In this document: piece after piece, positions 9,683 through 47,109 of the stretch
Numbering within the stretch: the stretch's first letter is position 1
How the letters are laid out: each line of letters opens with the position of its first letter
Assembly (NCBI GenBank): GCA_032718475.1
Contig: JAUCBJ010002261.1
Location: 1-50,732, forward strand
Direction: 5' to 3'
Origin: Nemertoderma westbladi
Lineage: Eukaryota > Animalia > Xenacoelomorpha
DNA length: 50,732 nucleotides
Made by a program: the position numbers and the translations under genes
The notes under the pieces: model-generated
Database searches by the model: none
Told to the model about the DNA's origin: nothing
Seen by the model: only the letters and a program-made list of their open reading frames with translations

Positions 9683-10327
9683 TTAAGGGTCAAAGGCCTT
9701 CAAGCTGATCATTTGCTTAGTTTTCTACTTAGAAGGTCGTGAGGTCGAACCCTAGAATAGCATTATTCTTTTTTCCTAGCTCTTTGCTGGCTTTATTATA
9801 CACTAGCTTTTAATCTCCCAGCTAGTGATAGTATGCAACCTTGGGAGTTAATGCGCTGTCTTATGAGTAAAGGCCAAGAGATTAGACTTCAGGTTGCCTC
9901 TGTTGGTTCACTCTTCTTAACATTACAAAAGAGTTTGCAAGCGCAGGTTCAAATCCAACTAAAGCTCTATATATTTTGCACTGAAGTGGAATACTTTAGA
10001 TGCTGGGGGAATCTGGTTTGCGAGGGATATTTGAATGGTGAGTATAACTATCCTTGAGAGTTAGTGTGACGTTATCTCACCATGGATGGGTTTTACCACT
10101 GAAACGAAAAACGGGTAAAGAAATTAAGCGTGTACTCGCATCTGCTCTGGCTCTCTCATTGGCTGCCTAACTCACCCTCGCGCTCTGATTGGATAATCCA
10201 TTCTAACCTCCCTTTATAATAGCCCGTTCACCGCATTCCATTTCATCCTCATAAAAGTTTTATTTATTTAAAATTTTGTAAAATCATTTAGCGAAAATTC
10301 AATACTATCAATTGAGATTGCTATATA

Positions 10328-10432
10328 ATGCATAGAGATGAAAGATGTTTGGTTTGTAATAAAGAAATCAGACAAGACAATCTATCTTGTCATAGGGAAA
10401 AACATATAAAGGATAAACTAATAAACTTATAA
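10328..10432 (+). pseudogene. Short or truncated C2H2 zinc-finger ORF (34 aa), paralogue of the N-terminus of 30809-31564
   Basis: Hand translation MHRDERCLVCNKEIRQDNLSCHREKHIKDKLINL*; 10195-10410 aligns by eye with 30645-30890, including the promoter and 5' UTR. Confidence 0.75.
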
Positions 10433-20061: not shown

Positions 20062-20458
20062 CAAGGATCAACATTCGGTAAATATAGCGGTAGAATAGGG
20101 TATGGCCAGGGCCTTCATAAAATAACAGGCCTGGACACAGAGCTGCCCTCAAAAAAATAAGAGGCCAAGTAGGAAGTTTTCAAGAATAAAATCATAAAGG
20201 ATTTACACAAATTGCCAATGGAGTTATGTTCTAGAACAAAAATAATTTAATATTTTATTAAATACTTGTTGTGTGTTGTGAAATTTTGAAATTATGGTTA
20301 GACACTGCAGTGTCAATAACTGTGAAAGTGGGAGTCAGCGGAGTGCATTGAGAACTGTTTTTGCTCCACCAAAAAACGTCGAAAAGAGAAAGTTGTGGCA
20401 AGAGGCACTACGCGAAAATGGTGTAGTGACATTAACTGATAGTATGGGAGTTTGTGAG
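20062..20458 (+). mobile_element. 5' end of a P-element-like DNA transposon with a truncated THAP domain (ATG 20294)
   Basis: Hand translation MVRHCSVNNC...VFAPPKNVEKRKLW...MGVCE fits THAP (C-x4-C...P...W...C-x2-H) but is cut before the last His by the LINE. A CAAGG possible terminus at 20062 is tentative. Confidence 0.72.
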
Positions 20459-22882: not shown

Positions 22883-25230
22883 GCACAGGATAAAGCTATT
22901 CATGGAGATGTCATTAACCATATCCAGCTGTATGGCACGGCATGTCATGTATACGAAGATAACGCACCATCTCTTAACCATGGTTCGAGCCCTCTAGACT
23001 TCTATTGGTCCAAATAAGTCTACACCCATGTTTGTAAAGGGGGGCTCATAGCAGCTAATGCGTTCCTTAGGTAAGGGAGCTTCTAACTGAGTCATCTGTC
23101 GGCAATACAGTTTCTTACAGGGTAAGCAGCTGCGCAGAACTTTATTTAGGGCTTTCTTGGGTTTTACAAAGTAATACCTAGTGCGTATTCACTAAGTATG
23201 TGTTCCCTTCTGGCGTGCAACAGCTGATTATGCACATCCTGTATTATCTTCTGTTGTATGACAGGATCGTAGATAATAATGGGAAATATCGTGTCGCGAG
23301 AAAGGGGAGCGTTTGTGAGTCTACTTCCCACTCTAATTAGGCCATCGAATATAACACTGGAGACTTCATGCTCCAATAATCTACCTTTTGTGATTTTGTT
23401 TTTATTACAGCGGTAGTACACATAATGCTTCAGTATGGTAACGGCACGGTAAAGTTTGTTCCAGGAACTATAGTGATCCTTGGCCCTGCTAATAAGTGGT
23501 GAAAACTGTCAGTCAAGTCTGGAATGGAAAGGGTGATGAGGGCCTCACTATCTGAGGTGCTCGGTGGGTTCACACTCTCGCGCACATGCAGTGAAGATAT
23601 GTCGATGCTTTTAAATAGCTTCGATTTGGACGCTTTGTTCTTAGATTTAGCGATTTCCACACCCTTCACTTGCTGTCTTATCTCTGCAGGCATTAAGTTT
23701 TTGGGCCAAGTATCTTCGGGGCCTTGCAAAAAGGCAGGTACCTGCAACCAACATTTAGTGTCTATCACTGAGGGGTGGCGCTGCGAGAAGCAATGTCAGC
23801 TGGGTTTAACAATCCAGGGCAGTGTCACCACTGTTTGACGTTGTCAGTGTCCTTTAGGATCCAAGCTACACGGTTCGTCACATACACGCTAAACTGACAT
23901 GTTGTGTTAGTCAGATATTCTAAAACTAACATAGCGTCTGTCCAGTAAACTGTCCTCACTACTGCATAGTCTGTCTGTGCCTACATGTTCTTGGCAATGA
24001 TGGTAGCGTATACGGCTGCCTTAAGTTCGGCTCTGGGTATAGTCAGAGTGTCTTTGGTTTTGGCAATTGGTCTTATAAGGGCTTTCGAAGCAACTAAAGC
24101 TACTGTGATACCATTCACGGTTTTGCATCTAAAGTAAGCTACAATGAAGACGCCCTTGTCGCTTGCATCACCGAATACATGGAGTTCGTAGGTTTGCAGG
24201 GAGTCTACATTTGGGAAATATTCTCTGGGTAGGGAAAACCTTTCCAAGTCTGGCAAGGACCGTTCCTATCGCCACCAGTCTTCCAATAGTGTCCCAGTCA
24301 AGGGGTCGTCCCAACTATCATTCTCCTTCCACATTCGCTGAACGAGATCTCGAACCAGTAAAATAACTGGGCTAATAAATCCCAGAGTGTCAAAGTAAGT
24401 GCTAAGTATGCTGAGGCAAATGCGTGTTGTTCGAGTTTCGCCCTTTCTTAACTTGACTCTGAATACCAGAGTATCGCTTTCTGTTAGTCAACGAAGACCT
24501 AACGTCTTAGTCTCTGGTAGGTGATCCTTGTTTAAGTCACGCTCGGCGGGGGGTATGGCCTTTAAGAACTCGAGGGAATTGCTAGTGATTTTTGTCAGGC
24601 GAAATCCTCCAAGTTTCAGGCAGTTTACTGTCCCCTGAGCAATGTTTATGGCTTCCTTAACTGTCGGGGCTGATTTCAAGTTATCGTCCATGTAAATATC
24701 CCTTTGATATTATCTATGACGGATGGTCGAAATTCATCCTGGTGGTCATCAGCTGATCGATGTAGCACTGAACATGAGTTCGATGAGCTGGAAATTATAC
24801 CGAATGCCTGAATGGTCATGCGATACTCTACTGGATCGGAATTTAGGTCCCCTTCTGTCCACCACAAGAAATGCATGCTTTCCTGGTCAATGTCCAAAGC
24901 TTTCACTTGCTGGAACATACCCTCTATGTATGAAGCGAAGGCGACAGCATATTGTCGCATATGCATTAATATTCCAGGTAGGGACTGCAACAAGTTGGGT
25001 CCGGGCAGTAGTTCCGAGTTAAGGGATTGTCCTTGGTATTTAGCTGAACTGTCGAACACTACTCTAATTCCTCCTGGTTTATGCTCACATTCGACGTAAT
25101 GGTGGGTAAGGTAGTATGTCCGGTCAGTCTTGGGGGTGTCTGGTGGGACCAGTTACGCATATCCCTTGCTTATAAACTTAGTCATTTGCTTCTAATATAA
25201 CTCATGAGCTGTTCAGATGAAACAGATTCA
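22883..25230 (-). mobile_element. BEL/Pao LTR retrotransposon pol remnants (RT, RNase H, start of integrase)
   Basis: FDSSAKYQGQSLNSELLPGPNLL, YMDD, LHVFGDAS, TIPRAEL, DGLIRVGSRL, PPFTNMGVDLFGP; many stops and frameshifts. Confidence 0.92.
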
Positions 25231-27932: not shown

Positions 27933-28440
27933 AAACAAAGAATAGAGATGAGGAACAGCGATAAAGTTTTTAATTTCATAATATTATAAGACAAATGCAA
28001 ACGTTTCGGAAGTAAACAACTACCATCTTCAGTGCAATCAATAATAAGCCAAAATAAAGTAAACAGAAATTTGAAAAAAACGGCAAAAAAACAAATATAG
28101 AATGCAGTAGTGCTATAGTGCAGAAATAGGAGGGCCTACCTAAGACGGGAGAGCAGTATAGTAAATAGGTTTAAATAATATAACGGCAAATATCCTATCT
28201 AAATGGGTATATACTGTATATGGGGGGGGGGGGGGGGGGGGTGTCCTAAAATAATTCAAGAGGGATGGAGCTAGTTTGTGTATTCAACGTCGGGTGTCTG
28301 TCTCTAATAAAATGTCTAAATAAAATAAAATAAAAAAAATAAAAAAAAAATAAAATGTTTACTTCCGAAACGTTTGCATTTGACTTATAATATTATGAAA
28401 TTAAAAACTTTATCGCTGTTCCTCATCTCTATTCTTTGTC
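27933..28440 (-). mobile_element. Penelope-like element 3' fragment with inverted partial pseudo-LTR
   Basis: Minus strand ~28312-28247 reads FIRDRHPTLNTQTSSIPLELF*, typical of a Penelope GIY-YIG C-terminus; 27935-28018 is inverted at 28356-28439; tgtctagttctg occurs on both sides (27895, 28437). Confidence 0.82.
27996..28036 (-). ncRNA. Minimal type I hammerhead ribozyme motif
   Basis: Minus strand UGCA-CUGAAGA-UGGUAG-uuguuua-CUUCC-GAAA-CGUU-UGCA: CUGANGA and GAAA boxes, short stem I, imperfect stem II, palindromic vestigial stem III as in Penelope hammerheads. Confidence 0.7.
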
Positions 28441-30200
28441 TAGTTCTGATGTGGGACCTGTCCCAAAGATTTCTTGCTGGGAACAGGTGGTGCAACCTGG
28501 TCAATGGAAGGGGGAATGCTAGTATGGGGGGCAGCTGTAACCGATGGGTGGTAAACAAAACTGACTCGGTCGGACATGATGGCAAATTAATAAAATTTAT
28601 GCACAAATAGTATGTTGCAACTATTAAGATGTGTTAACTACGTGTTTGTTCTACAACATAAATAATCAACACCAAATAAGATATTCTATTTACGCCACCT
28701 AGAGAGATAAATAATTTGGCTATTATCGGAGATGTAATACTCTCTGCTCCCACTGGGTGGCTTTATCCTAAATAAATTAAGTAACGCCTTTCAAAGAGAA
28801 CAGGAATAACAAGTATCGCTAAAGTGTTTTTACAATTCTTATTTCACCGCTAGTAGTCGCTGTCTACTGTGATCCGAGTGAATGCCGTCTGTTGTCATAT
28901 CTTTTAAGGAAGGTGTGTGCCCATGTCACTGATGTAATCATATTGAAAATTATAGAGACCAAAAGTGACCAAAAACAAAGTTAATTGACGTATATTACGG
29001 CCAACAGGCCTTTATTCAACGTCTAAAGTCAGGTTTATTTATTTAAACACCGAACCGACTGACTGACAGACTACTGCAGTACTAACAACAAACCGGTAAT
29101 CGAAATGCAATCTACTGTATGAAATTTAATAACCACTACTACTATATAGATTTTGTACAAAGCACCAATAAAACTAAAAACCAGTCGGGCTACCTAACTA
29201 TAAATTTAGATGTTAAGCACCAACAACACCGTAAGACCAAATTAAGCACACATTCTAACTGTAATTCAATCGTGAAATTTGTGATATGCCGAAAAAATAT
29301 GCAAAAAGTCTGCAAAAAGGCAAAAAAGTCGAAAACATGTAAAAAGGTGTAAATATTGTAAAAAGCATTTCGCAAAAGGAAACCGCAGGACGGAATGCGG
29401 GGGGGGGGGTGTAGATGGGAGTAGTAATGGTTTACCCTATTTCGGCGACAATTGGACCTACTTCACACCTTGGGTGTTAAGTAGGTCATTAATTAATTAA
29501 CCAATTAATTAATTGGTCGATTAAACAATTAATTAATTGTTTAATCAATCGATTTGTATCAAATAATGTTGCCAAAGGCAATTTAATTTGATACAAATCA
29601 ATCAGATAGGGACGCGAGATGAATAAATTGTACTATAACAAACGAAATATACAATACAATATACAATACATTTGTATTATTTTTGCCATACAATAGGTAA
29701 AGGTAGAATTAAATAAAAAGACACAATCGAGACCCAAAACATAAATTACCCTCACACAAAAATAAAGTGGCCCCAGTTTGGCCCCGAGTCATCCCTCAAT
29801 AATCTGCGGTCTGTTGGGCTCTTATTAACTGTAGCATGACTAACCCAAACATCAATGCGTGAATGGGGCCTGCGTGAATGGGACCTGCCATAGAGTTTAA
29901 ATTATTCAAACCTATAGCTTCGTTATTACATCAATTCATCCAAGAAATTAGAATAAACATCTGCTCTTGCAATAGATTGCATTCTTTCGCATTGTATTGC
30001 GAAGCAGTTTACGCATGCATTAGCTCAACAACAAAGGCAATATCCAAACGCCATGTGTCAAGTCCATGTGAGGGTTGAACCCACGACCTATTGGAGATGT
30101 GAATTCAAAGCAACCACTACACCAAGGTGGAACAGTAACGTTTGAATTTGTTCGTTAACGTTCGAATTTGTAAGACTCTGATTTAAGACCTGAGGCACTC

Positions 30201-30578
30201 CCCACAACCACAGCCACAGCCACAGCCACAGCCACAGCCACAACCACAGCCACAGCCACAGCCACAACCACAGCCACAACCACAGCCACAGCCACAGCCA
30301 CAGCCACAGCCACAGCCACAGCCACAGCCACAGCCACAGCCACAACCACAGCCACAGCCACAGCCACAGCCACAACCACAGCCACAGCCACAGCCACAGC
30401 CACAGCCACAGCCACAGCCACAGCCACAACCACAGCCACAGCCACAGCCACAGCCACAGCCACAGCCACAGCCACAACCACAGCCACAACCACAGCCACA
30501 GCCACAGCCACAGCCACAACCACAGCCACAGCCACAACCACAGCCACAGCCACAGCCACAACCACAGCCACAGCCACA
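30201..30578. repeat. (CCACAG/CCACAA)n hexamer microsatellite in the left IR arm
   Basis: Direct reading. Confidence 0.97.
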
Positions 30579-30660
30579 AATATTCTCCTCCAGAAAAATT
30601 CAAGAAACATCTGGTTTACAATAGATTATTCTTTTTTCACAACTCCATTCTAGCCTCCCT

Positions 30661-30697
30661 CTATAAAAGCCCCCATTCACCGCATTCTCATTCATTC
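30661..30697 (+). promoter_or_regulatory. TATA box and Inr-like core promoter of the zinc-finger cargo gene
   Basis: cTATAAAAg at 30661-30669, TCATTC ~26-30 nt downstream, ~115-nt AT-rich leader to ATG 30809. Confidence 0.6.
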
Positions 30698-30808
30698 TCT
30701 AATTTTTATTTTTAAAAGTTTTATTTATTTTCATAAAAGTTTTATTTATTTAAAATTTTGTAAAATCATTCAGCGAAAATTCATAATATCAATTGACATT
30801 GCTATATA

Positions 30809-31564
30809 ATGCCTAGCTATGAAAGATGTTTGGTTTGTAATAAAGAAATGAGACGAGACAGTATATCCCGTCATATGAGTATACATAGAAAGGAAGGTGT
30901 AATGGAACCATTACCAAAGAAATTAAAAAATAATGATGATATTTTTAGTGAAGAAGAAAACAAAAAGAGAGTTGAGAGTGATTTTCTAGAGATTAAACAA
31001 ATGATGAAACATAAATTCGAGAAAATCATGAATATTTTGAAGAATATACAGAAACAGCCACATAGTGAAAAGGACGATGAGAGTGAGGAAGAGAATAAAT
31101 CAGAGGAAAGTGAGAATGATGAAACGGAGAGTGAGATAGAGAAAGAAGAAAATGAGAGTGGTGGTGAAGAAAATGAGAGCGAGAAAGAAGTCGAGGAACA
31201 TGAAAGTGGTGAGGATAATGACTCAGATAATGAGGAGATATTAAGACATGTATTAGGAAATAAAAATAAATTGCAGAAGATAATTAGACAATTGAATGAA
31301 ATGCAGAAACATTCGCATAAGGAGAGTGATAATGATGGAAATGAGAGTGATGGGGATGAATCGGAGGAGAGTAGCGATGACAGTGAGGAAGAATCAGAGG
31401 AGAGTAGCGATGACAGTGAGGAAGCATCAGAGGAGAATGACAATGAAAATGGACAGAAAATCAGAGTAGGGAATGGAAAAGTTATATCTCCAGCAACTGT
31501 TGTATATCCTAGGATTATGAACAGTAACAGTCGTACAGTTAATGCGAGACAGTGCAGAAGATAA
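30809..31564 (+). CDS. Single N-terminal C2H2 zinc finger + basic patch + long Glu/Asp/Ser-rich acidic region (251 aa)
   Basis: CLVC-x12-HMSIH; PKKLK NLS-like patch; intact, intronless, with upstream TATA. Confidence 0.75.
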   Translation: MPSYERCLVCNKEMRRDSISRHMSIHRKEGVMEPLPKKLKNNDDIFSEEENKKRVESDFLEIKQMMKHKFEKIMNILKNIQKQPHSEKDDESEEENKSEESENDETESEIEKEENESGGEENESEKEVEEHESGEDNDSDNEEILRHVLGNKNKLQKIIRQLNEMQKHSHKESDNDGNESDGDESEESSDDSEEESEESSDDSEEASEENDNENGQKIRVGNGKVISPATVVYPRIMNSNSRTVNARQCRR

Positions 31565-31974
31565 TTAGACAATTGAATGAAATGTTACAATGTGTTATAA
31601 CTTATGTGTTACAATGTGTTATATCTTAAATGTTACTCTGCTATATGTATATGTATATGTGTTATGTTATAAATATATATTTCAATGTTGCTATATTAAA
31701 AATATGAAAATAGTCGACTATATTTCATTTTTCTTTTTCAACTTTGGATAAATAATATAGGGGTTAAACAAAGAACATCAAAACAGTTAAACAGTTACAT
31801 TTAACATTTAGACAGTAAACAGTAACAGTAAACATTTACATGACCAGTTGCGGTGAATGGGGGCTTTTATAGAGGGAGGCTAGAATGGAGTTGTGAAAAA
31901 AGAATAATCTATTGTAAACCAGATGTTTCTTGAATTTTTCTCAGGCGTATTTAACAATAAAGTGGGTGAAGGTG

Positions 31975-32655
31975 AGGCTGTGGTTGTGGCTGTGGTTGTG
32001 GCTGTGGTTGAGGCTGTGGCTGTGGTTGTGGCTGTGGCTGTGGCTGTGGCTGTGGCTGTGGTTGTGGCTGTGGCTGTGGCTGTGGCTGTGGTTGTGGCTG
32101 TGGTTGTGGCTGTGGTTGTGGCTGTGGCTGTGGTTGTGGCTGTGGCTGTGGTTGTGGCTGTGGCTGTGGCTGTGGTTGTGGCTGTGGCTGTGGTTGTGGC
32201 TGTGGCTGTGGTTGTGGCTGTGGCTGTGGTTGTGGCTGTGGTTGTGGCTGTGGCTGTGGTTGTGGCTGTGGCTGTGGCTGTGGCTGTGGTTGTGGCTGTG
32301 GCTGTGGCTGTGGTTGTGGCTGTGGTTGTGGCTGTGGTTGTGGCTGTGGCTGTGGCTGTGGCTGTGGTTGTGGCTGTGGTTGTGGCTGTGGCTGTGGTTG
32401 TGGCTGTGGTTGTGGCTGTGGCTGTGGCTGTGGTTGTGGTTGTGGCTGTGGCTGTGGTTGTGGCTGTGGCTGTGGTTGTGGCTGTGGCTGTGGTTGTGGC
32501 TGTGGCTGTGGTTGTGGCTGTGGCTGTGGCTGTGGCTGTGGCTGTGGCTGTGGCTGTGGCTGTGGCTGTGGCTGTGGCTGTGGCTGTGGCTGTGGCTGTG
32601 GCTGTGGTTGTGGCTGTGGCTGTGGCTGTGGTTGTGGATGTGGCTGTGGTTGTGG
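31975..32655. repeat. (GTGGCT/GTGGTT)n hexamer microsatellite in the right IR arm
   Basis: Reverse complement of 30201-30578, but longer. Confidence 0.97.
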
Positions 32656-33251
32656 GGAGTGCCTCAGGTCTTAAATCAGAGTCTTACAAATTCGAACGTT
32701 AACGAACAAATTCAAACGTTGCTGTTCCACCTTGGTGTAGTGGTTGCTTTGAATTCACATCTCCCGCATGTCATGGGTTCAACCCTCACATGGACTTGAC
32801 ATGTGGTGTTTTGGGTAGGGCTTTGTTGTTGAGCTAATGCATGCGTAAACCGCTTCATAAAGTACAATATGAAAGAATGCAAACTATTGCAAGAGCAGAT
32901 GTTTATTCTAATTTCTTGGATGAATTGATGTAATAACGAAGCTATAGGTTTGAATAATTTAAACTCTATGGCAGGTCCCATTCACGCAGGCCCCATTCAC
33001 GCATTGATGTTTGGGTTAGTCATGCTACAGTTAATAAGAGCCTAACGACCGCAGATTATTGAGGGATGACTCGGGGCCAAACTGGGGCCACTTTATTTTT
33101 GTGTGAGGGTAATTTATGTTTTGGGCCTCGATTGCGTCTTTATATTTCATTGTAGAGTATAACTCAACAAGGGGTTCCATGGGATGCTTAATCCTTCACG
33201 CATGCCATACCAAAAACTATGGTTCTGTTTGAAATGTTAAGGTGGACCTTT

Positions 33252-33286
33252 CTATATAAATAAAACCATGTAAAGTTAGATCATTA
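33252..33286 (+). promoter_or_regulatory. TATA box and Inr-like core promoter of the GTSF1-like gene
   Basis: cTATATAAAT at 33252-33261, TCATT at 33281, AT-rich leader to ATG 33368. Confidence 0.55.
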
Positions 33287-33367
33287 TCTCTAAAAATATT
33301 AAGTGAGGTTTTTAAAAGTTTTTTAAAAAGTATATCTCAATAAATTTTGTTTTTGTCTTTTGTTACT

Positions 33368-33670
33368 ATGGAATATTTCATATGTCCTTATGATGCCACA
33401 CACAGAATTCATTCAGAAAAATATGTTACGCATTTAAGAAAATGTCGTAAGAACTTTTCGAATCAAAAAATGGTTCAGTGTCCTTTTCAACCCGCACACA
33501 GCTTTAGAGAAGCTGAAAAGGATCACCATTTGCGGTTTTGCGAATATAGGTCCAGGAACTCAATTTTTCATATATTAAAAGAACAGAAAAAAGAAGAGAA
33601 AAAAGAAGAGAAAGAAGAGAAGAAGGGAGAATGTTCAATGGCGTGGGGAGAAGAGGTGTGGGATTATTGA
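33368..33670 (+). CDS. GTSF1-like: GTSF1/Asterix-like protein: two CHHC (zf-U11-48K) zinc fingers and a Trp-containing acidic tail, 100 aa
   Basis: CPYDATH-x9-HLRKCRKN...K..QCPFQPAH-x9-HLRFC..R matches the GTSF1 pattern CPYD..H.I......HL.KCRKN...CPF...H....E..HH...C; ends AWGEEVWDY. First ATG is at 33368. Confidence 0.88.
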   Translation: MEYFICPYDATHRIHSEKYVTHLRKCRKNFSNQKMVQCPFQPAHSFREAEKDHHLRFCEYRSRNSIFHILKEQKKEEKKEEKEEKKGECSMAWGEEVWDY

Positions 33671-35583
33671 TCACATGGTGTTTGGGTAGGGGTTTGTCTT
33701 TGAGTTAATATGCGCGTGGACTGCTTCATAAAGTATAACGCAAAAGAATACAAACTATTGCAAGAGTAGATGATTATTCTAATTTCTTGGATGAATTGAT
33801 GTAATAACGAAGCTATGGATTCAAAGGGATTAGTCAAACTGGGGCCACTTTATTTTTGTGTGAGGGTAATTTATGTTTTGGGTTTCGATTGTGTCTTTTT
33901 ATTTAATTCTACCTTTACCTATTGTATGGCAAAAATAATACAAATGTATTGTATATTGTATTGTACTGTACTACGGTTCCTATTGTATTGTATATTTTAT
34001 CTACTGTACCTACTGTAGTACAATTTATTCATCGCGCGTCCCTATCTGATTGATTTGTATCAAATTAAATTGCCTTTGGCAACATTATTTGATACAAATC
34101 GATTGATTAAACAATTAATTAATTGTTTAATCGACCAATTAATTAATTGATTGATTAATTAATGACCTACTTAACACCCAAGGTGTGAAGTGGGACCAAA
34201 CTGTCGCAGAAGTAGGGTAAACCATTACTACTGCCAGCGTTTGGTTTGTATTTTGTTTGAGTATTCTGTACGGGTAGCGTAATATTTATTATTCAGAGTT
34301 TATGCGATTATTCGCAACATTCATGTCCCCAAGTTTATTCCTACAGTAATTGTGCTTGTTACACATACCGTTATAGTTAAATTAACCCCGGTACTACACG
34401 GGCTGCTTGGCGTAGGTAAAGACTGGTGACTTTATGCTCCGGTCACTCCAGCAGATGCCGTGGTTCTTTTAACTGTTCAAGTATATTTAACTGCTAGTTA
34501 TCTGTTCTTAATAAGTACTTGTACCTAATTTAGGGTTTGGTGTACAGTGCTTTCCGAAAGTAATTAGTGTGTAGGCAGTGTATTGTGTTGTAAAGTGGTT
34601 AATAGGCACGTTGGATCTGGTAGTCCACGGTAATTAACTTCTAGGTAGGAACACTCCGTGATACATAACTTAGTACCTATAGCGATACGGCTATAGGTCG
34701 TCAGGCGGTGGTATTTTCCTATCTGGACAGCGCAATATATTTACTACTACTTATTATTTTCAAATACCGTAGTATCCTGTCTGTTATAATAACCAGAATT
34801 CTAACCCTTTGTTAGACTGGTTTGTAGACTTCCTGTAAAATTACCCTAAAATTTCATACGTAATATTTTGTTGTGTTTTAATTAGAGAATTAATCTCACC
34901 CGTATCGTACGTAATTTGTAGTATTAAGTAACTTAGGTAAATTAGAATTATCTGTTTTAGTGTCCAATAAGTAGCACTTCACTGAGAGCGCACAGCTTCT
35001 GTGTAGTGACTCCCCCCAGAAATAATAACATTTATTTCAAATATTGACAAAACCCATTTTAAACGGGTATATATCTATTATAAATCAACTCAAACGATTT
35101 ACAAATAGTAGGCCTGCCATACAACAACTAGGTCTCAATATCAGTTGGACTACTGCTTAAATAACGGTAATAAAGTAAGTTAAAGTAACTAAGTAACCTT
35201 TAAAATTCAGAAATTCAATTATTTAAATAATTGATATACCGGTATTTACGATAGGCCTATTATCTTTATTTCTATAAATTTAGGCCATAAATTTAGGCCT
35301 AAATTTTAATTTATTTAGTCCAGAATTATACTTATATACTATAAGTGTAGGCTGTATACCGGTATTCACGATAGGCCTATTATATATTTATATATATTTG
35401 TGTTAAAATTATATACCGGTACTCTGTGACAAACCTAGTTTACAATACTTATATACTATAAGTGTATACCGGTATTCTAATATATTGTAATTAATTACCG
35501 GTACTAGGCCAACGGTCATACTGAATTACTAGACTCGCTTTAACTGTAACTATAGCAGTAAGCATTCAACTGTATAGATAAAC

Positions 35584-36972
35584 ATGTCTGACACCCAGCA
35601 AAACCTGTCAGACAGTCTAATCGATACAACCATCTGTGACACAGATAGGAGTGTGGAGCGATTAAGAAAGGGGTTCAGCTCACCTCGTACTGAAAGAAAG
35701 GTCATCCCTCCAGTAGTAGTATCAGACCCTAGGCTAATCCAACACCGTAGGTCTATCATCGGCACTCGGGCCCAAGTCAAACGGAACCAGGAAGCAGCTG
35801 TCCAACAGCAGCAACATCCTAGTCAAGAAACTTGTTCCCAGCGACCCGATAGCTCCAGTAGTTCGGATACTGTAGAGCTGACCCCCGAACGCGGAGTGCA
35901 GATGGCGGCTACAGCCTACTCGGATCCCCTTCTCACCCTTCCTGCCGCAGTGCTAACTACTATATTGATTGCGGTGGAGGAACACCAAGTCGATTGGGCG
36001 AGAAGTAAGCGAGCGACCCAAGATAGTTATGCGGGATACGCCAGGGAAGAATTGATGTCTATTGTCGAGTCACAATGGAACTTTCCCGGACCCGGACTCC
36101 CGTTAGATTTGTCCGAAGCTACTTGGGAAGACATCCACAGGATGGGAGTGACTAAAGATACGATGGATCCAGCTGTTTGGAAGAGGTCAGCAGCAGGATA
36201 TGTGCAGGGATTCTTCAGCTCCTTAGAGCGATTAGAAGAACAACTGTTTCGACAACCCCAAGGACCTCAAGAGCAGGAAGAGCTGCTATATCAAGTACGC
36301 GAAAGAACCCTACGCATTAGACTAATCCTATCAGCCTTTGAGGAAACTTCCAAAAGAAGACAGGACACGTCGCTGCAGGTTGCTGTCAAGACTTGGTTCC
36401 AGCGGGTAGGTCTCAAAGAAACGGCCCAGTGGAAATCCCAGCTGGCTGAGAGACCAACCTATGAAGAACCAACCGATGCCACCCTTTCTCAAGTGGAAAG
36501 CGAAGGGACAGCAGAGAGACCGCGAACGAGAGACGCCATCGACATCTATCTGTCAGACTATCAACACTTCTTGGGTGATGAAGAGTTGAGGAGACGACTG
36601 GCTGGACTTCGCCCCAATAGTGAAGGAGCCAAGCTTGTGTTGGACTCAATCGATGCGGAAATGTTAGCTGCAAACCAAGCTAAATTTGATGAAAAACTCC
36701 GCCTCGCTAGAGTCCAAGAAGAACAAGTAAAGAAAAAACGGATAGAGGACAGAAAGGCAGCAGCAGTAACAGCGGCAATGGCAGAAGTAGAAGCAGAAAG
36801 AAAGGCAGCAAGAGCAGCGGCGGCAGAAGCAGAAGCAGAAAGAAAGGCAGCGGCGGCAGAAGCAGAAGCAGAAGCAGAAAGAAAGGCAGCAAAGGCAGTG
36901 GCAGAAGCAGAACGGAGAGCGTCTGAGGAGACTACCCAACTGGAGTTACCCAAAGAGGTGAGGTCTCTATAG
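35584..36972 (+). CDS. ORF A, 462-aa coiled-coil protein, likely N-terminal part of a BEL/Pao gag
   Basis: Intact ORF with AEAEAERKAA repeats; abuts the gag-B sequence directly in copy 3. Confidence 0.55.
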   Translation: MSDTQQNLSDSLIDTTICDTDRSVERLRKGFSSPRTERKVIPPVVVSDPRLIQHRRSIIGTRAQVKRNQEAAVQQQQHPSQETCSQRPDSSSSSDTVELTPERGVQMAATAYSDPLLTLPAAVLTTILIAVEEHQVDWARSKRATQDSYAGYAREELMSIVESQWNFPGPGLPLDLSEATWEDIHRMGVTKDTMDPAVWKRSAAGYVQGFFSSLERLEEQLFRQPQGPQEQEELLYQVRERTLRIRLILSAFEETSKRRQDTSLQVAVKTWFQRVGLKETAQWKSQLAERPTYEEPTDATLSQVESEGTAERPRTRDAIDIYLSDYQHFLGDEELRRRLAGLRPNSEGAKLVLDSIDAEMLAANQAKFDEKLRLARVQEEQVKKKRIEDRKAAAVTAAMAEVEAERKAARAAAAEAEAERKAAAAEAEAEAERKAAKAVAEAERRASEETTQLELPKEVRSL

Positions 36973-38225
36973 GGGTGACTCCAACAGGTGGCGGCGGACT
37001 CGTGAGGGTCTGGGGGCACGTTAAATCGTTGGTATAGTGCAGGGGAGTTACTGAAGGCCCTCGTGTCTAGCGAACCATGAATTAACATGGTGCCGTGGTA
37101 CCGTCTAGTCGGCCTGTTGCCGTACTGCCAGTCCTGTACACAGTAGGGGTGGTGGCTTAGTGTGATCTGTGGTTTATGTGGTCTATGTGGTAGGTCTATG
37201 TTTGGTATGTATGAGTTGACCAGACTCTTTACTGTCTCCGATCGGTTGCCAAAACGTGTCTTTTCCCAGGGTAGCACTATTGGAATGGAGGTGTTGCATC
37301 GGAATGGACAGGTTTCTGATGATTCTGTTGGTACTACTATTGGAATGGAGGTGGCACCCGGAATATCGGCTGCAAGGAGGGGTTGGTGTTGTAGTGTGGT
37401 CCGAGTGAATGATACTCTGGAATCTGTGGTTTGTGTGTGTACGTGGTATACGTGAGTGTATGTATGGCCACTGCGAGTGAGTATGGGAACCCTTGCCAGT
37501 TGGTCCAGACGCCGCTGGTTATTAGTAGGACCATATCTTTACTGCGCCCCAGCATACTTTGTGCACACAAAGTTATTTTGCCCTGACGGCAAAATAAGGT
37601 ACTCTCGACTCTTTTAACAGTCGATACAATTTTGTCCCCTCTGATTTTGTCACCGATTTTGTCTTCCCCGATTATGTCCTCTGTGTGTGCATGGTATGCG
37701 TCAGATTTGTGTTTACCGTTGTGTACTTGATTTCGTCAGCATCTATTGAGTACACGTGTACAGTGACTGGTAAGTGGTTACTTGTTCCTAGCTTTCGAGC
37801 TAGTCAGTATTGTTTGTGGAACCGACTTCCCCTCAATACTGCCGGTGAGGCGGGTGAAAACGTGTCAAAATTCCATGTTGGGTAGCGCAAGCCCACTTGG
37901 GACAAGACCGTCGGTTTGGCTCAAGGGCGACCTTGATGCTCGATCGCTATCGACTGGTCCACCCGCCGGTTGACTCTCTGAGTTGGCTCAATGTACAGTC
38001 AGGCCACAGTAAGTTGACAGTAGGCGAACTTTGTGTAATTCGGCTACACACGACGAGCTGTGCCGGTGTGATCGGGGGATTGAAAATTGAACCCGGGAAG
38101 CATCGGGCTATCCTCCGGCCCGGTCTGATAAAAACGGAGTCGGACTGGCCCCAAGGGTAGTGGAAAAGCGTCCGCCTCGTGGGTGCGCCTCGGGGAGGAG
38201 CCCAGAAGGACGTAAGCGGGAAAAT

Positions 38226-38991
38226 CTGCAAGAGACGCAAGACAACATAAATAAACAGTTAACTGCTAGCCAAATGCAGATGATGAGACGATCTACTCCC
38301 AAACGCCAGGGATACACATCATCGGAGGAAAGCGAAACCACCGATCCTGAAGGCGGAGGAAATAGATCTCGTCTAAGCAGGCGTAGAAAAACATCTCACC
38401 GTCACAAATTGCCTGATTTGCCCCCAGCGGTTAGAAGACAACTAGCTAGCACAGACTTAAGTAGTATAGAACCTACAGACCAAATTATTAAGGTCAAAAG
38501 ACTCCCTACTATAGTTGATGAGCCTGAAATAATTAGGCCTGTCGTTCCCAAAGCCACTCCTGTGCTAGAGACCCCTGTACTTCCAGAGCTTAACTCTAAA
38601 TTCCCTTTACACCGTACTACACTGCCTGTACCCGGTAGAACAGTCCATGAGAATATCCCTGTCCTGGAAGCTGAGAGAGAAATCAAAGATTTGTCTCCCG
38701 TCGTCCCGCGTCGGCCCGCTACAATGATGGCGACTCCCGCTTCGGCGGTCGAGTGGGTAGAGGAGGGACGGCGGGGGATGAATCTCCTGCTCGGACAGAT
38801 GCAGGAGACTGTCCACCAACTTAAGGGAACAGTAAGGGAAAGTAGGGCAGAATTGCAGGAAGTGCAGCAAAGTATCGCGCTAGAACGTGACAAATTAGTC
38901 ATTATACAAAAGGGTATACCAATACCCCCAGTAACATTGTGTCAACCTGTTAGGTCTGAAGTATTACATGCGCAAGGTATGGAGCCTACAC
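38226..38991 (+). pseudogene. Truncated gag-B segment (copy 1)
   Basis: Near-identical to the N-terminal part of the 43228-44913 ORF, broken at ~38991. Confidence 0.75.
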
Positions 38992-40655
38992 ACCGTGTAT
39001 GCCCACTGTGTATTCTGCCAGCGTTTTGGCCTGTGTTTGTTTGTGTGGTCCGTTCAGATACCGTAATAGTTATTACTCAGATATTTTGTAGGCTGGATTG
39101 TTGTCTAGCTATTATTAGGTCTGAAGAGATTGCTGCGTGTGTAGAGTTTGTCTGATAAAGTGCCAGTTAGTAAGTTGGGGCAGCCAGAGCTGTAAGGTCA
39201 ATCCCCTCCTAAAGAATAAGTCGTACTACCATGTTAGAACGCATACTAACTAACCATTTTGGAATCTGCACATACTGTAGTTTATTTAGGCTTGATGGTA
39301 GTCTGCCAGCGTTTGGTTTGTATTTTGTTTGAGTATTCTGTACGGGTAGCGTAATATTTATTATTCAGAGTTTATGCGATTATTCGCAACATTCATGTCC
39401 CCAAGTTTATTCCTACAGTAATTGTGCTTGTTACACATACCGTTATAGTTAAATTAACCCCGGTACTACACGGGCTGCTTGGCGTAGGTAAAGACTGGTG
39501 ACTTTATGCTCCGGTCACTCCAGCAGATGCCGTGGTTCTTTTAACTGTTCAAGTATATTTAACTGCTAGTTATCTGTTCTTAATAAGTACTTGTACCTAA
39601 TTTAGGGTTTGGTGTACAGTGCTTTCCGAAAGTAATTAGTGTGTAGGCAGTGTATTGTGTTGTAAAGTGGTTAATAGGCACGTTGGACCTGGTAGTCCGC
39701 GGTAATTAACTTCTAGGTAGGAACACTCCGTGATACATAACTTAGTACCTATAGCGATACGGCTATAGGTCGTCAGGCGGTGGTATTTTCCTATCTGGAC
39801 AGCGCAATATATTTACTACTACTTATTATTTTCAAATACCGTAGTATCCTGTCTGTTATAATAACCAGAATTCTAACCCTTTGTTAGACTGGTTTGTAGA
39901 CTTCCTGTAAAATTACCCTAAAATTTCATACGTAATATTTTGTTGTGTTTTAATTAGAGAATTAATCTCACCCGTATCGTACGTAATTTGTAGTATTAAG
40001 TAACTTAGGTAAATTAGAATTATCTGTTTTAGTGTCCAATAAGTAGCACTTCACTGAGAGCGCACAGCTTCTGTGTAGTGACTCCCCCCAGAAATAATAA
40101 CATTTATTTCAAATATTGACAAAACCCATTTTAAACGGGTATATATCTATTATAAATCAACTCAAAGGATTTACAAATAGTAGGCCTGCCATACAACAAC
40201 TAGGTCTCAATATCAGTTGGACTACTGCTTAAATAACGGTAATAAAGTAAGTTAAAGTAACTAAGTAACCTTTAAAATTCAGAAATTCAATTATTTAAAT
40301 AATTGATATGCCGGTATTTACGATAGGCCTATTATCTTTATTTCTATAAATTTAGGCCATAAATTTAGGCCTAAATTTTAATTTATTTAGTCCAGAATTA
40401 TACTTATATACTATAAGTGTAGGCTGTATACCGGTATTCACGATAGGCCTATTATATATTTATATATATTTGTGTTAAAATTATATACCGGTACTCTGTG
40501 ACAAACCTAGTTTACAATACTTATATACTATAAGTGTATACCGGTATTCTAATATATTGTAATTAATTACCGGTACTAGGCCAACGGTCATACTGAATTA
40601 CTAGACTCGCTTTAACTGTAACTATAGCAGTAAGCATTCAACTGTATAGATAAAC

Positions 40656-42049
40656 ATGTCTGACACCCAGCAAAACCTGTCAGACAGTCTAATCGATACA
40701 ACCATCTGTGACACAGATAGGAGTGTGGAGCGATTAAGAAAGGGGTTCAGCTCACCTCGTACTGAAAGAAAGGTCATCCCTCCAGTAGTAGTATCAGACC
40801 CTAGGCTAATCCAACACCGTAGGTCTATCATCGGCACTCGGGCCCAAGTCAAACGGAACCAGGAAGCAGCTGTCCAACAGCAGCAACATCCTAGTCAAGA
40901 AACTTGTTCCCAGCGACCCGATAGCTCCAGTAGTTCGGATACTGTAGAGCTGACCCCCGAACGCGGAGTGCAGATGGCGGCTACAGCCTACTCGGATCCC
41001 CTTCTCACCCTTCCTGCCGCAGTGCTAACTACTATATTGATTGCGGTGGAGGAACACCAAGTCGATTGGGCGAGAAGTAAGCGAGCGACCCAGATAGTTA
41101 TGCGGGATACGCCAGGGAAGAATTGATGTCTATTGTCGAGTCACAATGGAACTTTCCCGGACCCGGACTCCCGTTAGATTTGTCCGAAGCTACTTGGGAA
41201 GACATCCACAGGATGGGAGTGACTAAAGATACGATGGATCCAGCTGTTTGGAAGAGGTCAGCAGCAGGATATGTGCAGGGATTCTTCAGCTCCTTAGAGC
41301 GATTAGAAGAACAACTGTTTCGACAACCCCAAGGACCTCAAGAGCAGGAAGAGCTGCTATATCAAGTACGCGAAAGAACCCTACGCATTAGACTAATCCT
41401 ATCAGCCTTTGAGGAAACTTCCAAAAGAAGACAGGACACGTCGCTGCAGGTTGCTGTCAAGACTTGGTTCCAGCGGGTAGGTCTCAAAGTACAAGAAACG
41501 GCCCAGTGGAAATCCCAGCTGGCTGAGAGACCAACCTATGAAGAACCAACCGATGCCACCCTTTCTCAAGTGGAAAGCGAAGGGACAGCAGAGAGACTGC
41601 GAACGAGAGACGCCATCGACATCTATCTGTCAGACTATCAACACTTCTTGGGTGATGAAGAGTTGAGGAGACGACTGGCTGGACTTCGCCCCAATAGTGA
41701 AGGAGCCAAGCTTGTGTTGGACTCAATCGATGCGGAAATGTTAGCTGCAAACCAAGCTAAATTTGATGAAAAACTCCGCCTCGCTAGAGTCCAAGAAGAA
41801 CAAGTAAAGAAAAAACGGATAGAGGACCGAAAGGCAGCAGCAGTAACAGCGGCAATGGCAGAAGTAGAAGCAGAAAGAAAGGCAGCAAGAGCAGCGGCGG
41901 CAGAAGCAGAAGCAGAAAGAAAGGCAGCGGCGGCAGAAGCAGAAGCAGAAGCAGAAAGAAAGGCAGCAAAGGCAGTGGCAGAAGCAGAACGGAGAGCGTC
42001 TGAGGAGACTACCCAACTGGAGTTACCCAAAGAGGTGAGGTCTCTATAG
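40656..42049 (+). pseudogene. ORF A copy 2 with a 1-bp frameshift near 41091
   Basis: gcgacccagatagt versus gcgacccaagatagt in copy 1; also a 6-bp insertion (KVQET). Confidence 0.75.
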
Positions 42050-43293
42050 GGGTGACTCCAACAGGTGGCGGCGGACTCGTGAGGGTCTGGGGGCACGTTA
42101 AATCGTTGGTATAGTGCAGGGGAGTTACTGAAGGCCCTCGTGTCTAGCGAACCATGAATTAACATGGTGCCGTGGTACCGTCTAGTCGGCCTGTTGCCGT
42201 ACTGCCAGTCCTGTACACAGTAGGGGTGGTGGCTTAGTGTGATCTGTGGTCTATGTGGTAGGTCTATGTTTGGTATGTATGAGTTGACCAGACTCTTTAC
42301 TGTCTCCGATCGGTTGCCAAAACGTGTCTTTTCCCAGGGTAGCACTATTGGAATGGAGGTGTTGCATCGGAATGGACAGGTTTCTGATGATTCTGTTGGT
42401 ACTACTATTGGAATGGAGGTGGCACCCGGAATATCGGCTGCAAGGAGGGGTTGGTGTTGTAGTGTGGTCCGAGTGAATGATACTCTGGAATCTGAGGTTT
42501 GTGTGTGTACGTGGTATACGTGAGTGTATGTATGGCCACTGCGAGTGAGTATGGGAACCCTTGCCGGTTGGTCCAGACGCCGCTGGTTATTAGTAGGACC
42601 ATATCTTTACTGCGCCCCAGCATACTTTGTGCACACAAAGTTATTTTGCCCTGACGGCAAAATAAGGTACTCTCGACTCTTTTAACAGTCGATACAATTT
42701 TGTCCCCTCTGATTTTGTCACCGATTTTGTCTTCCCCGATTATGTCCTCTGTGTGTGCATGGTATGCGTCAGATTTGTGTTTACCGTTGTGTACTTGATT
42801 TCGTCAGCATCTATTGAGTACACGTGTACAGTGACTGGTAAGTGGTTACTTGTTCCTAGCTTTCGAGCTAGTCAGTATTGTTTGTGGAACCGACTTCCCC
42901 TCAATACTGCCGGCGAGGCGGGTGAAAACGTGTCAAAATTCCATGTTGGGTAGCGCAAGCCCACTTGGGACAAGACCGTCGGTTTGGCTCAAGGGCGACC
43001 TTGATGCTCGATCGCTATCGACTGGTCCACCCGCCGGTTGACTCTCTGAGTTGGCTCAATGTACAGTCAGGCCACAGTAAGTTGACAGTAGGCGAACTTT
43101 GTGTAATTCGGCTACACACGACGAGCTGTGCCGGTGTGATCGGGGGATTGAAAATTGAACCCGGGAAGCATCGGGCTATCCTCCGGCCCGGTCTGATAAA
43201 AACGGAGTCGGACTGGCCCCAAGGGTAGTGGAAAAGCGTCCGCCTCGTGGGTGCGCCTCGGGGAGGAGCCCAGAAGGACGTAAGCGGGAAAAT

Positions 43294-45465
43294 CTGCAAG
43301 AGACGCAAGACAACATAAATAAACAGTTAACTGCTAGCCAAATGCAGATGATGAGACGATCTACTCCCAAACGCCAGGGATACACATCATCGGAGGAAAG
43401 CGAAACCACCGATCCTGAAGGCGGAGGAAATAGATCTCGTCTAAGCAGGCGTAGAAAAACATCTCACCGTCACAAATTGCCTGATTTGCCCCCAGCGGTT
43501 AGAAGACAACTAGCTAGCACAGACTTAAGTAGTATAGAACCTACAGACCAAATTATTAAGGTCAAAAGACTCCCTACTATAGTTGATGAGCCTGAAATAA
43601 TTAGGCCTGTCGTTCCCAAAGCCACTCCTGTGCTAGAGACCCCTGTACTTCCAGAGCTTAACTCTAAATTCCCTTTACACCGTACTACACTGCCTGTACC
43701 CGGTAGAACAGTCCATGAGAATATCCCTGTCCTGGAAGCTGAGAGAGAAATCAAAGATTTGTCTCCCGTCGTCCCGCGTCGGCCTGCTACAATGATGGCG
43801 ACTCCCGCTTCGGCGGTCGAGTGGGTAGAGGAGGGACGGCGGGGGATGAATCTCCTGCTCGGACAGATGCAGGAGACTGTCCACCAACTTAAGGGAACAG
43901 TAAGGGAAAGTAGGGCAGAATTGCAAGAAGTGCTGCAAAGTATCGCGCTAGAACGCGACAAATTAGTCATTATACAAAAGGGTATACCAATACCCCCAGT
44001 AACATTGTGTCAACCTGTTAGGTCTGAAGTATTACATGCGCAAGGTGTGGAGCCTACACGCATCTATACTGCTAGTGAAGTAGAAACTCCTATAGCAAAC
44101 CCTATTAAGGGTGATTATAAACCTGTTGTTAATGATATTCCCTATAGACCTGATAATGATCCGAGAAATTTATATACCAATAATTCGATATTAAATAACA
44201 CGATGGCCCAAGAAAGCTTTACGCGTCAGATGGCTAGAACAGAAGCCCGCCAAGCGGTCAAAGTGGGAGAGATCGTCAAATTCAATGGAGATGAGATGAA
44301 ATGGTTACCTTTCAATGAATATTACAAAGATAGCATACAGAACTCTGTACTATCTAACGGAGAGAAACTTAGATTCCTCATCAAGTGCTTGGAAGGACCT
44401 CCCAAGTTAATGGCGTTAAAGTTCATTGGACATCCAGATGGATTAAGACAAGTTTGGGATACATTAAACATCAGGTATGGTAACAAGGATAACATAGCTA
44501 AGTATTTGTATGCAAAATTAGTAGCCCCCCGAAACTTCCTTAGTAGCGGGATTATAGAGTTTTCCAATGAGATTCAGGAGATCTGTAGACAATTGGACTG
44601 GTTAGGTAAGTCTCATGAATATCAGAGTTCCATGGTTATTGGAGCCGTAGTCTCTACTTTACCAAAGGGTGGAGTATGTACACGCTGGGATAAGAAAGTG
44701 TTGTATATGAATGAGCAGCAACGACAAAGCCCTACCATGGCTGATCTCATGTCCTTCTTAGATGGCGAAGTAAAACTACAACTCATCAAGCAGTCCAGAG
44801 AGAAAACATCGGAAAATAAGGTAAGTGAGAAACCCGTTTCTAGGAGAAGAGTAACACCAGTGTGTTACACTGACGACGGCGAAAGCCAAGCTTCTCAAGA
44901 AGAGGACAGCTAGAAAGACACTGACCGATTTTACTACGTTAACAAAACCTCAAAGGACGTAAGTAAATACAAGGCTCGAACCAAAGATAGGAGAGAACAG
45001 GTTGCCAAGACTCCTCCTCAGTCTCCTAACAGAATGCACGGAAGAAAGCCCGAAGAAAGAACGAGAGTGCATCAAGTTACCCAAGGTAAAGTGAGTAACA
45101 TCAAACCAAACTGTGCGCTGTGCGACGGGCCCCACCGTTTGAGTGCGTGTGCTGAATTTCTAAAGAAATCCCTTGTAGACAGACGTGCAGTCATGTGGGA
45201 TAAGCGGTTATGCTATAATTGCCTCAGATCAGGACACCAACGGCGAACCTGTTACTCCGACGTAAAGTGTGCAAAGTGTGGCGCGAAACATCACATCTTG
45301 TTACACAGTGATGTCGAACGAGACAACCCGAGTCAGGTAAGTGAGCCCGAACTACATGTCCAATTCAGTGATGTAAATGACACTGATCAAGAGTCTGAGA
45401 GGGAAGGATTCTATACTGACGAATTCTCCGACGCCAACGAATCCTGTTACCTAATAAATACCGCA
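43294..45465 (+). mobile_element. BEL/Pao gag (DUF1759-like region + three Cys/His knuckles), stop at 44913, truncated before the protease
   Basis: KFNGDEMKWLPF...KLRFLIKCLEG...WDTLNIRYG; CALCDGPHRLSAC, CYNCLRSGHQRRTC, CAKCGAKHHILLH. Confidence 0.9.
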
Positions 45466-45482
45466 GTGTATCGAGCACTTAC

Positions 45483-45575
45483 TGTAAAAGCTTCTGTGGG
45501 ATATAACTGGCCCCTTTGCTTCGCAATCCAGTTTCCCCCCAGGCGCTGGAATACTCTAAAAAGGTTCTCTAACTG
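45483..45575 (+). mobile_element. TGTAAAAGC terminal segment interrupting gag copy 2
   Basis: Matches the reverse complement of 20-111 and matches 50687-50732. Confidence 0.65.
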
Positions 45576-46819: not shown

Positions 46820-46948
46820 GAACCGGTACTTCTGTAGGTCAGTAGGCCCAACTGCCAGAACCGGTACTGCCGTAGGTCCGTAGGTCCAACTGCCAGAACC
46901 GGTACTTCTGTAGGTCCGTAGGCCCAACTGTCCTAACCGGTACTTCCA
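46820..46948. repeat. ~38-bp minisatellite (AACCGGTACTTCTGTAGGTCCGTAGGCCCAACTGCCAG), ~3.3 copies
   Basis: Direct reading. Confidence 0.8.
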
Positions 46949-47109
46949 GTATAAGTACATTAGTATTATTTCGATTGTGATCTATTGTATATTGTAGGCT
47001 GCCAGGGGAATAGGGATTGATCACCCCTCATTCTTTTGTATAGTTTACTTATTTCTGTCAGTTTTATTTCCTAGTAAGTTAATATTGAGCTGAAGACGTG
47101 TAAGTCTGC

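Follow-up and report, generated by a model that had tools for sequence, protein, structure and literature searches.

A multi-version GTSF1-family gene, probably under selection, in a Maverick-ended element of Nemertoderma westbladi: a candidate transposon-encoded piRNA-pathway factor

The window analysed here, the whole 50,732-nucleotide stretch of contig JAUCBJ010002261.1 from the Nemertoderma westbladi assembly GCA_032718475.1, contains a GTSF1/Asterix-family gene located between long terminal inverted repeats (TIRs) (Table 1). Its frame runs from the ATG at 33368 to a stop at 33670, encodes 100 amino acids without the need of an intron and ends in W-G-E-E-V-W-D-Y, confirming the intact, intronless reading frame given in a preliminary description of this DNA. 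The surrounding element measures 4,813 bp and is 64% palindromic, with 3,072 of the 4,813 bases having an inverted partner. It is arranged in the order left TIR, left arm with hexamer array, middle gene, mirrored arm, GTSF1 cassette, short subterminal copy and right TIR.

Table 1 Features of the GTSF1-bearing element and of a related fragment in the window
Feature	Position	Strand	Remarks
Decayed middle-gene promoter/start fragment	10197..10413	+	86-88%
Left TIR	29420..29780		Begins AGTAGT, (AGT)2
Left inner arm	29704..30684		Mirrored at 31849-33154
Middle gene	30809..31564	+	251 aa; N-terminal C2H2-like finger and long acidic tract; own TATA/Inr
Mirror copy of left arm	31849..33154		GTSF1 cassette directly after
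Hexamer array	31976..32655		Mirror at 30202-30578
tRNA/SINE-head-like stretch	32724..32800 (mirror ~30060-30135)	+	A-box/B-box look-alikes; very abundant genomic repeat
Promoter-like region	33253..33367	+	TATA 33253, Inr A+1 33283, T-rich leader (motif matches)
GTSF1/Asterix-family gene	33368..33670	+	Intact, intronless, 100 aa (P0001)
CHHC finger 1	33383..33445	+	C6-H12-H22-C26; profile score at family median
CHHC finger 2	33479..33541	+	C38-H44-H54-C58; zinc ligands retained, other positions remodelled
Terminal Trp motif W93-x4-W98-D99	33644..33664	+	Alignment with rat W129/W134
Shortened second subterminal copy	33667..33911	+	86% to 32804-32945, 92% to 33078-33154
Right TIR	33835..34232		Ends ACTACT, (ACT)2; 37 bases longer than left TIR

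The profile search that the preliminary description had proposed recognizes Pfam zf-U11-48K (PF05253) in two stretches of the protein (40 bits against a cut-off of 21.1, E 3.3e-10), bearing out the two CHHC fingers. These tandem zinc fingers share the spacing C-x5-H-x9-H-x3-C, and all eight zinc ligands are kept. A sequence search of the PDB returned three matches in total at E ≤ 1, namely mouse GTSF1 (6x46, E 2.6e-11), the GTSF1 chain of 9nhb (E 2.9e-8) and U11-48K (E 0.063); TRM13 is absent among the three. An AlphaFold2 model built on a 44-row alignment (mean pLDDT 88) shows both fingers, a long helix spanning the charged linker and a tail that is open. In fold comparisons it is matched best by 6x46 and by the GTSF1 chain of 9nhc, a SIWI-piRNA-target-GTSF1-Maelstrom complex. 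Named database relatives are largely animal GTSF1, GTSF1-like or uncharacterised CHHC proteins. The PDB E-values, the fold matches, the named relatives and an alignment with the Trp pair of the rat protein agree in placing the protein with GTSF1 rather than with U11-48K or TRM13, as had been proposed, and the gene is thus a member of the GTSF1/Asterix family.

HMMER searches against 1.84 billion representative sequences gave 434 matches at E ≤ 0.001, of which the best 150 were analysed. Among these, the nearest relative is 47% identical over both fingers, and one 35-residue stretch reaches 57%. A word-index protein search yielded none at E ≤ 0.001 among 76 candidates, and the exact protein sequence is absent from a collection of 15 billion sequences. 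No relative was found in viral contigs, queried with the protein itself and with compact homologues, or in metagenome contigs, and the model had no match at E ≤ 0.001 in a viral structure library. In a quick, poorly resolved tree of 142 rows and 63 columns, the end branch of the protein has a length of 1.48 against a median of 0.49; with 80 of its 139 inner branches open, this tree does not allow a donor lineage to be named. Compact GTSF1-like proteins of 105-115 amino acids that end at the Trp motif (P0158, P0159, P0029, P0110 and P0077) are encoded on metagenome or run contigs of 9-50 kb.

The two fingers compare differently with those of their homologues. Among 138 finger-scored homologues, which were selected by likeness to the 100-residue protein, 63 score at or below it for finger 1, versus only 5 for finger 2. 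The departures in finger 2 include Gln in place of Asn (Asn in 116 of 138) and Tyr in place of Asp (Asp in 88 of 138), and on this comparison the second finger appears unusually remodelled. Residues were compared with 141 of the best 150 homologues, those having canonical tandem fingers. In finger 1, K18, K25 and K28 stand at the positions of mouse R29, K36 and K39, and His occupies the R26 site, so that three of the four basic residues predicted to bind RNA (mouse R26, R29, K36 and K39) appear to be kept, a state that is modal in the family (93 of 141). The preliminary description had taken this His as a hint of a decoy. The substitution itself is real in the alignment, but the hint does not hold: the R26 site has Arg in 31 of the 141 homologues, Lys in 15 and His in 5, and because Arg is this infrequent and three of four basic residues are the commonest state, a His at this position carries little meaning.

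At the C-terminus, W93 and W98 fall in the register of mouse W107/W112 through their alignment with the rat pair and form a putative PIWI-binding motif, with the W98 column at least 90% conserved in the 44-row alignment. The distance from the last Cys to W98 is 40 residues, close to the family median of 42 (quartiles 37-45, n = 99 homologues with the motif). The stop directly after this motif had also been offered as a decoy hint and must be given up. Silkworm Gtsf1L, which binds Ago3 and Vreteno, likewise ends just after the Trp, as does the chain of 5 of the 99 motif-bearing homologues (within six residues), and compactness is therefore no sign of a decoy.

Upstream of the gene, the TATA motif and the Inr A+1 are separated by 30 nt, the canonical spacing, and the gene's own TATA/Inr noted previously is thereby upheld as a pair of sequence motif matches. 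A leader 10-mer at 33313-33322 has four matches in the window, a number reached in 0 of 100 shuffles: one in the GTSF1 leader, two in the middle-gene leader and one in the decayed leader copy at 10.2 kb, with no occurrence elsewhere in the window. To judge by this motif, common to the element's other gene, the GTSF1 gene belongs to the element. No poly(A) remnant was found 3' of the stop, so that retroposition, one of the two origins suggested earlier, is without support. No AATAAA occurs between the GTSF1 stop and the element end.

The AGTAGT- and ACTACT-ended TIRs reported around the gene are present, and 352 of 361 aligned bases are identical between them, with 37 gap bases. The first 221 nt of the left TIR form four stacked hairpins (−43 kcal/mol for DNA, z −7.6, a stability reached by 0 of 200 shuffles), possibly a replication-origin structure. 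The AT-rich TIR hairpins at 29455-29605 and 34045-34195 are near-perfect, and a search of Rfam gave no match at gathering level and 13 weak matches, mostly to these AT-rich hairpins. A 6-bp target-site duplication, for which a check had been suggested, is absent (2 of 6 bases match), and no length from 2 to 12 matches. Polymerase, integrase, capsid, ATPase and protease had no Pfam match in the window frames scanned, which comprised 28 ORFs, 5 more frames and 81 of 99 stop-to-stop frames, the 18 omitted being already-scanned ORFs or repeat frames. The earlier label of a Maverick-like element therefore stands in part: the long TIRs of the (AGT)2//(ACT)2 type are confirmed, whereas the core genes and the target-site duplication are absent. 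Because both of the latter are missing, we do not file the element as a Maverick proper; it is probably a non-autonomous Maverick satellite. The TIR pattern had no match in viral contigs, and ten metagenome matches to it were rejected as chance, each being limited to 18-22 bases. The right flank runs into a 4.8-kb unit that is duplicated further along at 99.4%, and the usual upstream sequence of this unit differs from the left flank of the element. With its flanks mismatched in this way, the present copy has been rearranged, recombined with another insertion or misassembled.

The two arms are 94% identical over 501 columns outside the hexamer arrays and 100% identical over 93 columns. Owing to the second subterminal copy, the GTSF1 cassette is framed by direct repeats, and the joint of this copy is present in both DNA sequencing runs described below. 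The middle gene has no homologue in database searches. The interval 30592-30809 looks, from its sequence, like a bidirectional promoter shared by the middle gene (+) and the left Val/Ala frame (−), and 93 of its bases are repeated exactly, inverted, at 31849-31941. The hexamer arrays lie inside ATG-started Val/Ala-repeat frames at 31923-32702 (+) and 30155-30610 (−). They consist of two alternating unit types, the Val/Ala frames stand behind identical promoters, and the unit variation is silent in a Gly-Cys frame and in the opposite Pro-Gln frame, both without an ATG.

The tRNA/SINE-head-like stretch contains what we take, from familiar motifs, to be look-alikes of an A-box and a B-box. Its summed depth reaches ~390,000 in run X1, its loose ends resemble tRNA B-boxes, and ARAGORN called no tRNA. 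Mouse GTSF1 has been reported to bind tRNA. The fragment at 10197-10413 is, by its resemblance to the middle-gene promoter and start, a likely trace of another member of the element family. Many sequence versions and a high subterminal depth were seen in the compared interval 32670-33589, which lies inside the outer ends of the element.

Repeats and retroelements also occur in the remaining window. The interval 110-7976 holds a 16-nt satellite (88 copies) and then a 36-nt one (177 copies, 98% alike), in which a single frame stays free of stops over more than 6 kb. At 8552-9376, three copies of a 30-mer match the element at 30172-30201 and 32656-32685 (90-93%) and head a 22-nt quasi-palindromic satellite. 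Reverse transcriptase is encoded by three minus-strand ORFs within 11727-24265, one of them preceded by an endonuclease ORF, and a fragment of a Pao peptidase lies on the minus strand of this interval as well. Two inverted 84-bp repeats (27935-28018 and 28356-28439, 99%) enclose ~340 bases in a MITE-like arrangement. From 34231 to 50732 there are three related BEL/Pao-like units (99.4% and 92-93%), one of which leads into a DUF1759 gag-like ORF at 43342-44913.

Parts of the stretch are contained in five of eight listed sequencing runs. Two DNA runs from two studies, X1 and X2, hold 0.90 and 0.81 of its words, and one of them is possibly the source of the window assembly; two RNA runs are marine metagenome libraries rather than the host (word share 0.04). 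Three further runs with the same species label contain next to none of the window's words. The interval 32670-33589, which covers the promoter and codons 1-74 and leaves the linker, Trp motif and outer ends outside, was compared with the two DNA and two RNA runs, with 16 of 1,845 pieces listed, and neither RNA run matched it. In X2, at least five contigs overlap at 33435-33486 and differ from the window at 0/123, 7/162, 11/136, 23/160 and 19/95 positions; contigs of X1 differ at 0/121, 6/107, 12/86, 12/97 and 15/140. Across the two DNA runs, versions of the gene are thus up to 14-20% diverged. Alleles of a single locus would be expected to be fewer and closer to one another; the most diverged contig (19/95) may represent the GTSF1 gene of the host itself.

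The comparison yielded 40 listed difference rows and 27 further ones. Among the 40, 23 are coding, and 22 of these 23 were seen in both runs. Silent changes account for 14 of the 23 listed coding differences and replacements for 9, corresponding to a pN/pS of 0.14-0.24 for transition weights of 1-6 (binomial p 5e-6 to 8e-4), with changes classed singly against the window's codon and four codons carrying more than one. If the 27 further rows were all neutral coding changes, pN/pS would be 0.36-0.51 (p ≤ 0.02), and the signal vanishes only if nearly all of them are replacements. The 23 listed coding changes include no replacement of a zinc ligand and no stop, and all ten listed indels lie 5' of the ATG, with none in codons 1-74.

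The diverged versions retain their element context. One contig, differing at 8 of 91 bases, spans the transition from the subterminal repeat to the GTSF1 promoter, and the leader is continuous with the coding part in two diverged contigs; the divergence therefore occurred with the gene in the element. The joint at the right end has a depth similar to that of the exact gene contigs (352 versus 334-355 in X1; 140 versus 192 in X2). Per-site depth in X1, which is not a copy number, is ~230-1,380 for the gene versus ~11,000 for the subterminal repeat, and by this far higher subterminal depth the GTSF1 gene seems to be present at only a minority of family ends. Several versions with mostly silent differences indicate that the gene is not just a single locus of the host and not a one-off neutral retrocopy, two of the three deflationary readings that the preliminary description had set out.

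Mouse GTSF1 offers a basic face of finger 1 to RNA and Trp residues for PIWI binding, and it speeds up slicing, according to the available parts of PMC9385479; GTSF1 and Maelstrom are described as joining target-engaged PIWI to form PIWI* (PMC13269885, PMC13650160, in part). Against this background, we tentatively propose that the GTSF1 carried by this likely Maverick satellite is kept by selection, docks on host PIWI-piRNA complexes and dampens the silencing of its own family. The proposal starts from observed features, namely family membership, an intact frame, a position between inverted ends and several versions in two DNA runs. The protein has very probably been maintained by selection during its time in the element, and the element would probably be moved in trans by autonomous Mavericks. 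Host Pol II would transcribe the gene from its TATA/Inr, after which finger 1 would contact RNA and the W93/W98-D99 tail would contact PIWI, with tail binding modelled on mouse GTSF1 and silkworm Gtsf1L; we regard this step as likely. As both putative docking parts, the basic finger 1 and the Trp tail, are kept, binding to host PIWI would be the likely first step. Once docked, the protein might compete with the host's GTSF1 for target-engaged PIWI, and the complex formed with the remodelled finger 2 might slice poorly or be inefficient in recruiting Maelstrom and chromatin silencers; given docking, the chance of this joint step is little better than even.

Such a mimic, which we likewise favour with some hesitation, is consistent with the accessory position in a parasite, the element-type promoter, the selection across copies, the long branch and the altered finger 2. 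DNA viruses generally keep compact mimics of defence proteins, a further ground for this reading. The low score of finger 2 beside a finger 1 at the family median, the branch of 1.48 and the nearest relative at 47% together suggest a changed role. Several considerations count against this proposal. Every feature known as needed for activation appears to be kept, and since silkworm Gtsf1L, of the same build, works inside the pathway, a working activator would fit the sequence equally well. A protein that shut down piRNA function altogether should reduce the fertility of the host and thereby also hurt the element (sections of PMC6719617). By analogy with nematode GTSF-1, the GTSF fold may also switch partner (excerpts of PMC13650160). 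The missing target-site duplication and the mismatched flanks of the element weigh against the proposal as well.

Four other explanations may be weighed against this mimic. The protein could be a working PIWI activator, carried as the satellite's defence cargo to sharpen piRNA slicing of competing transposons or of its own helper Mavericks, or limiting its own family. This we consider rather unlikely, even though purifying selection, the eight zinc ligands, the modal set of three basic residues, the two Trp at the mouse spacing and the compact build of silkworm Gtsf1L all agree with it, and it would spare the host the loss of fertility expected from a broad suppressor. Cargo of this kind has an analogy in the anti-phage genes of phage satellites. 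However, finger 2 departs at well-kept positions (Gln for Asn, Tyr for Asp), the branch is long, and a host with its own GTSF1 would gain little unless the cofactor is limiting.

Alternatively, a host GTSF1-like paralogue may have been picked up and amplified by a TIR element in the manner of Pack elements, with selection acting on the host and the element serving as a vehicle. GTSF1 paralogues are common and specialised on PIWI paralogues, as the portions at hand of PMC9385479 report, and mobile families with only protein-coding cargo are reported in insects. The lack of core genes in the element and a gene depth in X1 far below that of the subterminal repeat, by which most family ends seem to be without the gene although depth is not a copy number, fit this explanation as well. 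It is nonetheless quite unlikely, as the leader motif is common only to the element's other gene, the gene is intronless without a poly(A) trace, and a diverged version keeps the element junction, placing the divergence inside the element.

Re-use of the fingers for a job without PIWI, such as binding element RNA, tRNA-like RNA or a Tudor-domain protein, appears distinctly improbable, since, despite its low-complexity linker, the protein has the Trp pair of PIWI-binding GTSF1s at a matching distance from the fingers. In its favour are the tRNA-head-like stretch in the element arms and the remodelled finger 2, together with the published observations that nematode GTSF-1 binds RRF-3 rather than PIWI (PMC13650160, excerpts) and that silkworm Gtsf1L uses its W-D motif to bind Vreteno, a Tudor protein (PMC10711660, excerpts). 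Finally, a neutral, passively carried copy or a single host locus overrun by repeats would suit the transposon-dense window, the missing target-site duplication and the 27 difference rows beyond the 40 listed, but is very improbable and largely refuted by the five or more versions in one run with differences common to two studies and by the 14 silent among 23 listed coding changes without a listed coding indel.

Rapid evolution of piRNA genes is usually ascribed to an arms race. In the available sections of a 2019 review, no factor encoded by a transposable element and directed against the piRNA pathway was known (PMC6719617). The present gene is a concrete candidate for a piRNA-pathway factor encoded by such an element: 100 residues long, selected, element-borne and a homologue of the cofactor by which PIWI is switched on. 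Maverick-type elements are already known to carry host genes as cargo; a selected, multi-version GTSF1-family gene in a Maverick-ended satellite appears to be a new case. The preliminary description knew of no Maverick-borne GTSF1, and full-text literature searches, in which Asterix and Cue110 were not library-wide terms and which mostly did not extend to subscription papers, agree, having found no element-borne GTSF1 among the papers listed. The terms GTSF, Asterix, CHHC and gametocyte do not occur in the available adintovirus text and supplement material (PMC8502044), GTSF and Asterix are absent from the available main text of the Pannagram preprint (bioRxiv 10.1101/2025.02.07.637071), and GTSF, CHHC and gametocyte are absent from the supplement of PMC8097293 as far as available. 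That an animal Maverick satellite captured GTSF1 as a mimic that jams target-engaged PIWI*, and thus encodes an antagonist of the piRNA pathway, is a possible but somewhat doubtful reading. PIWI slicing has been assayed with purified GTSF1 for mouse, silkworm and sponge (PMC9385479, available parts), so that the choice between decoy and activator is decidable in one experiment. Either outcome would be new, being piRNA counter-defence in one case and a satellite carrying a booster of genome defence in the other, and both bear on whether mobile elements fight the piRNA pathway with proteins.

Among known GTSF1 proteins, mouse GTSF1 (6x46) and the 9nhb/9nhc chain share with the element-borne protein the tandem CHHC fingers, the basic finger 1 and a Trp pair in the W107/W112 register at the usual distance. 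Unlike known GTSF1s, it is element-borne and intronless, has a remodelled finger 2, only five residues before the first Cys (family median 14) and no region beyond the Trp motif, and its highly charged linker is predicted to be helical. In Bombyx mori Gtsf1L, the tail is 39 residues long and carries W99-D100 among its last five residues, a motif that supports Ago3 and Vreteno binding, as described in the consulted part of PMC10711660. The likeness, drawn from that published description, extends to the pair of fingers, the tail length of ~40 residues and the W-D motif close to the C-terminus; Gtsf1L, in contrast, is a host gene.

In vertebrates, (AGT)2//(ACT)2 is the commonest Maverick end type, with a mean TIR of 402 bp and elements of 12.7-24.6 kb (PMC8097293, in part). 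The present element resembles Maverick/Polinton elements (adintoviruses) in these ends, in a TIR of ~360 bp near that mean, in intronless genes and in accessory genes near the ends; it differs in being 4.8 kb long, mostly palindromic and without core genes or a 6-bp target-site duplication. Mavericks with cargo are already known, and Polinton insertions in C. elegans are described as reshaping a small-RNA gene (bioRxiv 10.1101/2024.01.15.575659, abstract), a phenomenon different from the capture of GTSF1. Among anti-silencing factors encoded by transposable elements, VANC of Arabidopsis VANDAL elements and mir820 (PMC6719617, in part) are likewise accessory genes of DNA elements; the GTSF1 gene shares this position and possibly acts on host silencing. 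They differ in being plant factors of the DNA-methylation pathway, sequence-specific and experimentally shown.

A parallel in kind concerns a gene labelled MAEL on four adintovirus maps (supplementary Fig. S2 of PMC8502044, available part) and a "mael-associated" polinton group in moths (bioRxiv 10.1101/2025.02.07.637071, Pannagram, available part). We read MAEL as Maelstrom, the other PIWI* cofactor, by inference, because neither text, as far as available, expands the label; a mobile MAEL does not appear in the accessible portion of PMC2628886. As in the GTSF1 satellite, a Maverick-type element would carry a putative piRNA-pathway cofactor, and the adintovirus gene represents a possible second case; unlike the GTSF1 gene, it encodes a different protein in autonomous elements, with no function reported in the available sources. 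If the mimic proposed here is real, it and the MAEL-labelled genes of insect adintoviruses would together imply that both PIWI* cofactors were taken up by Maverick-type elements, in separate lineages, as counter-defence.
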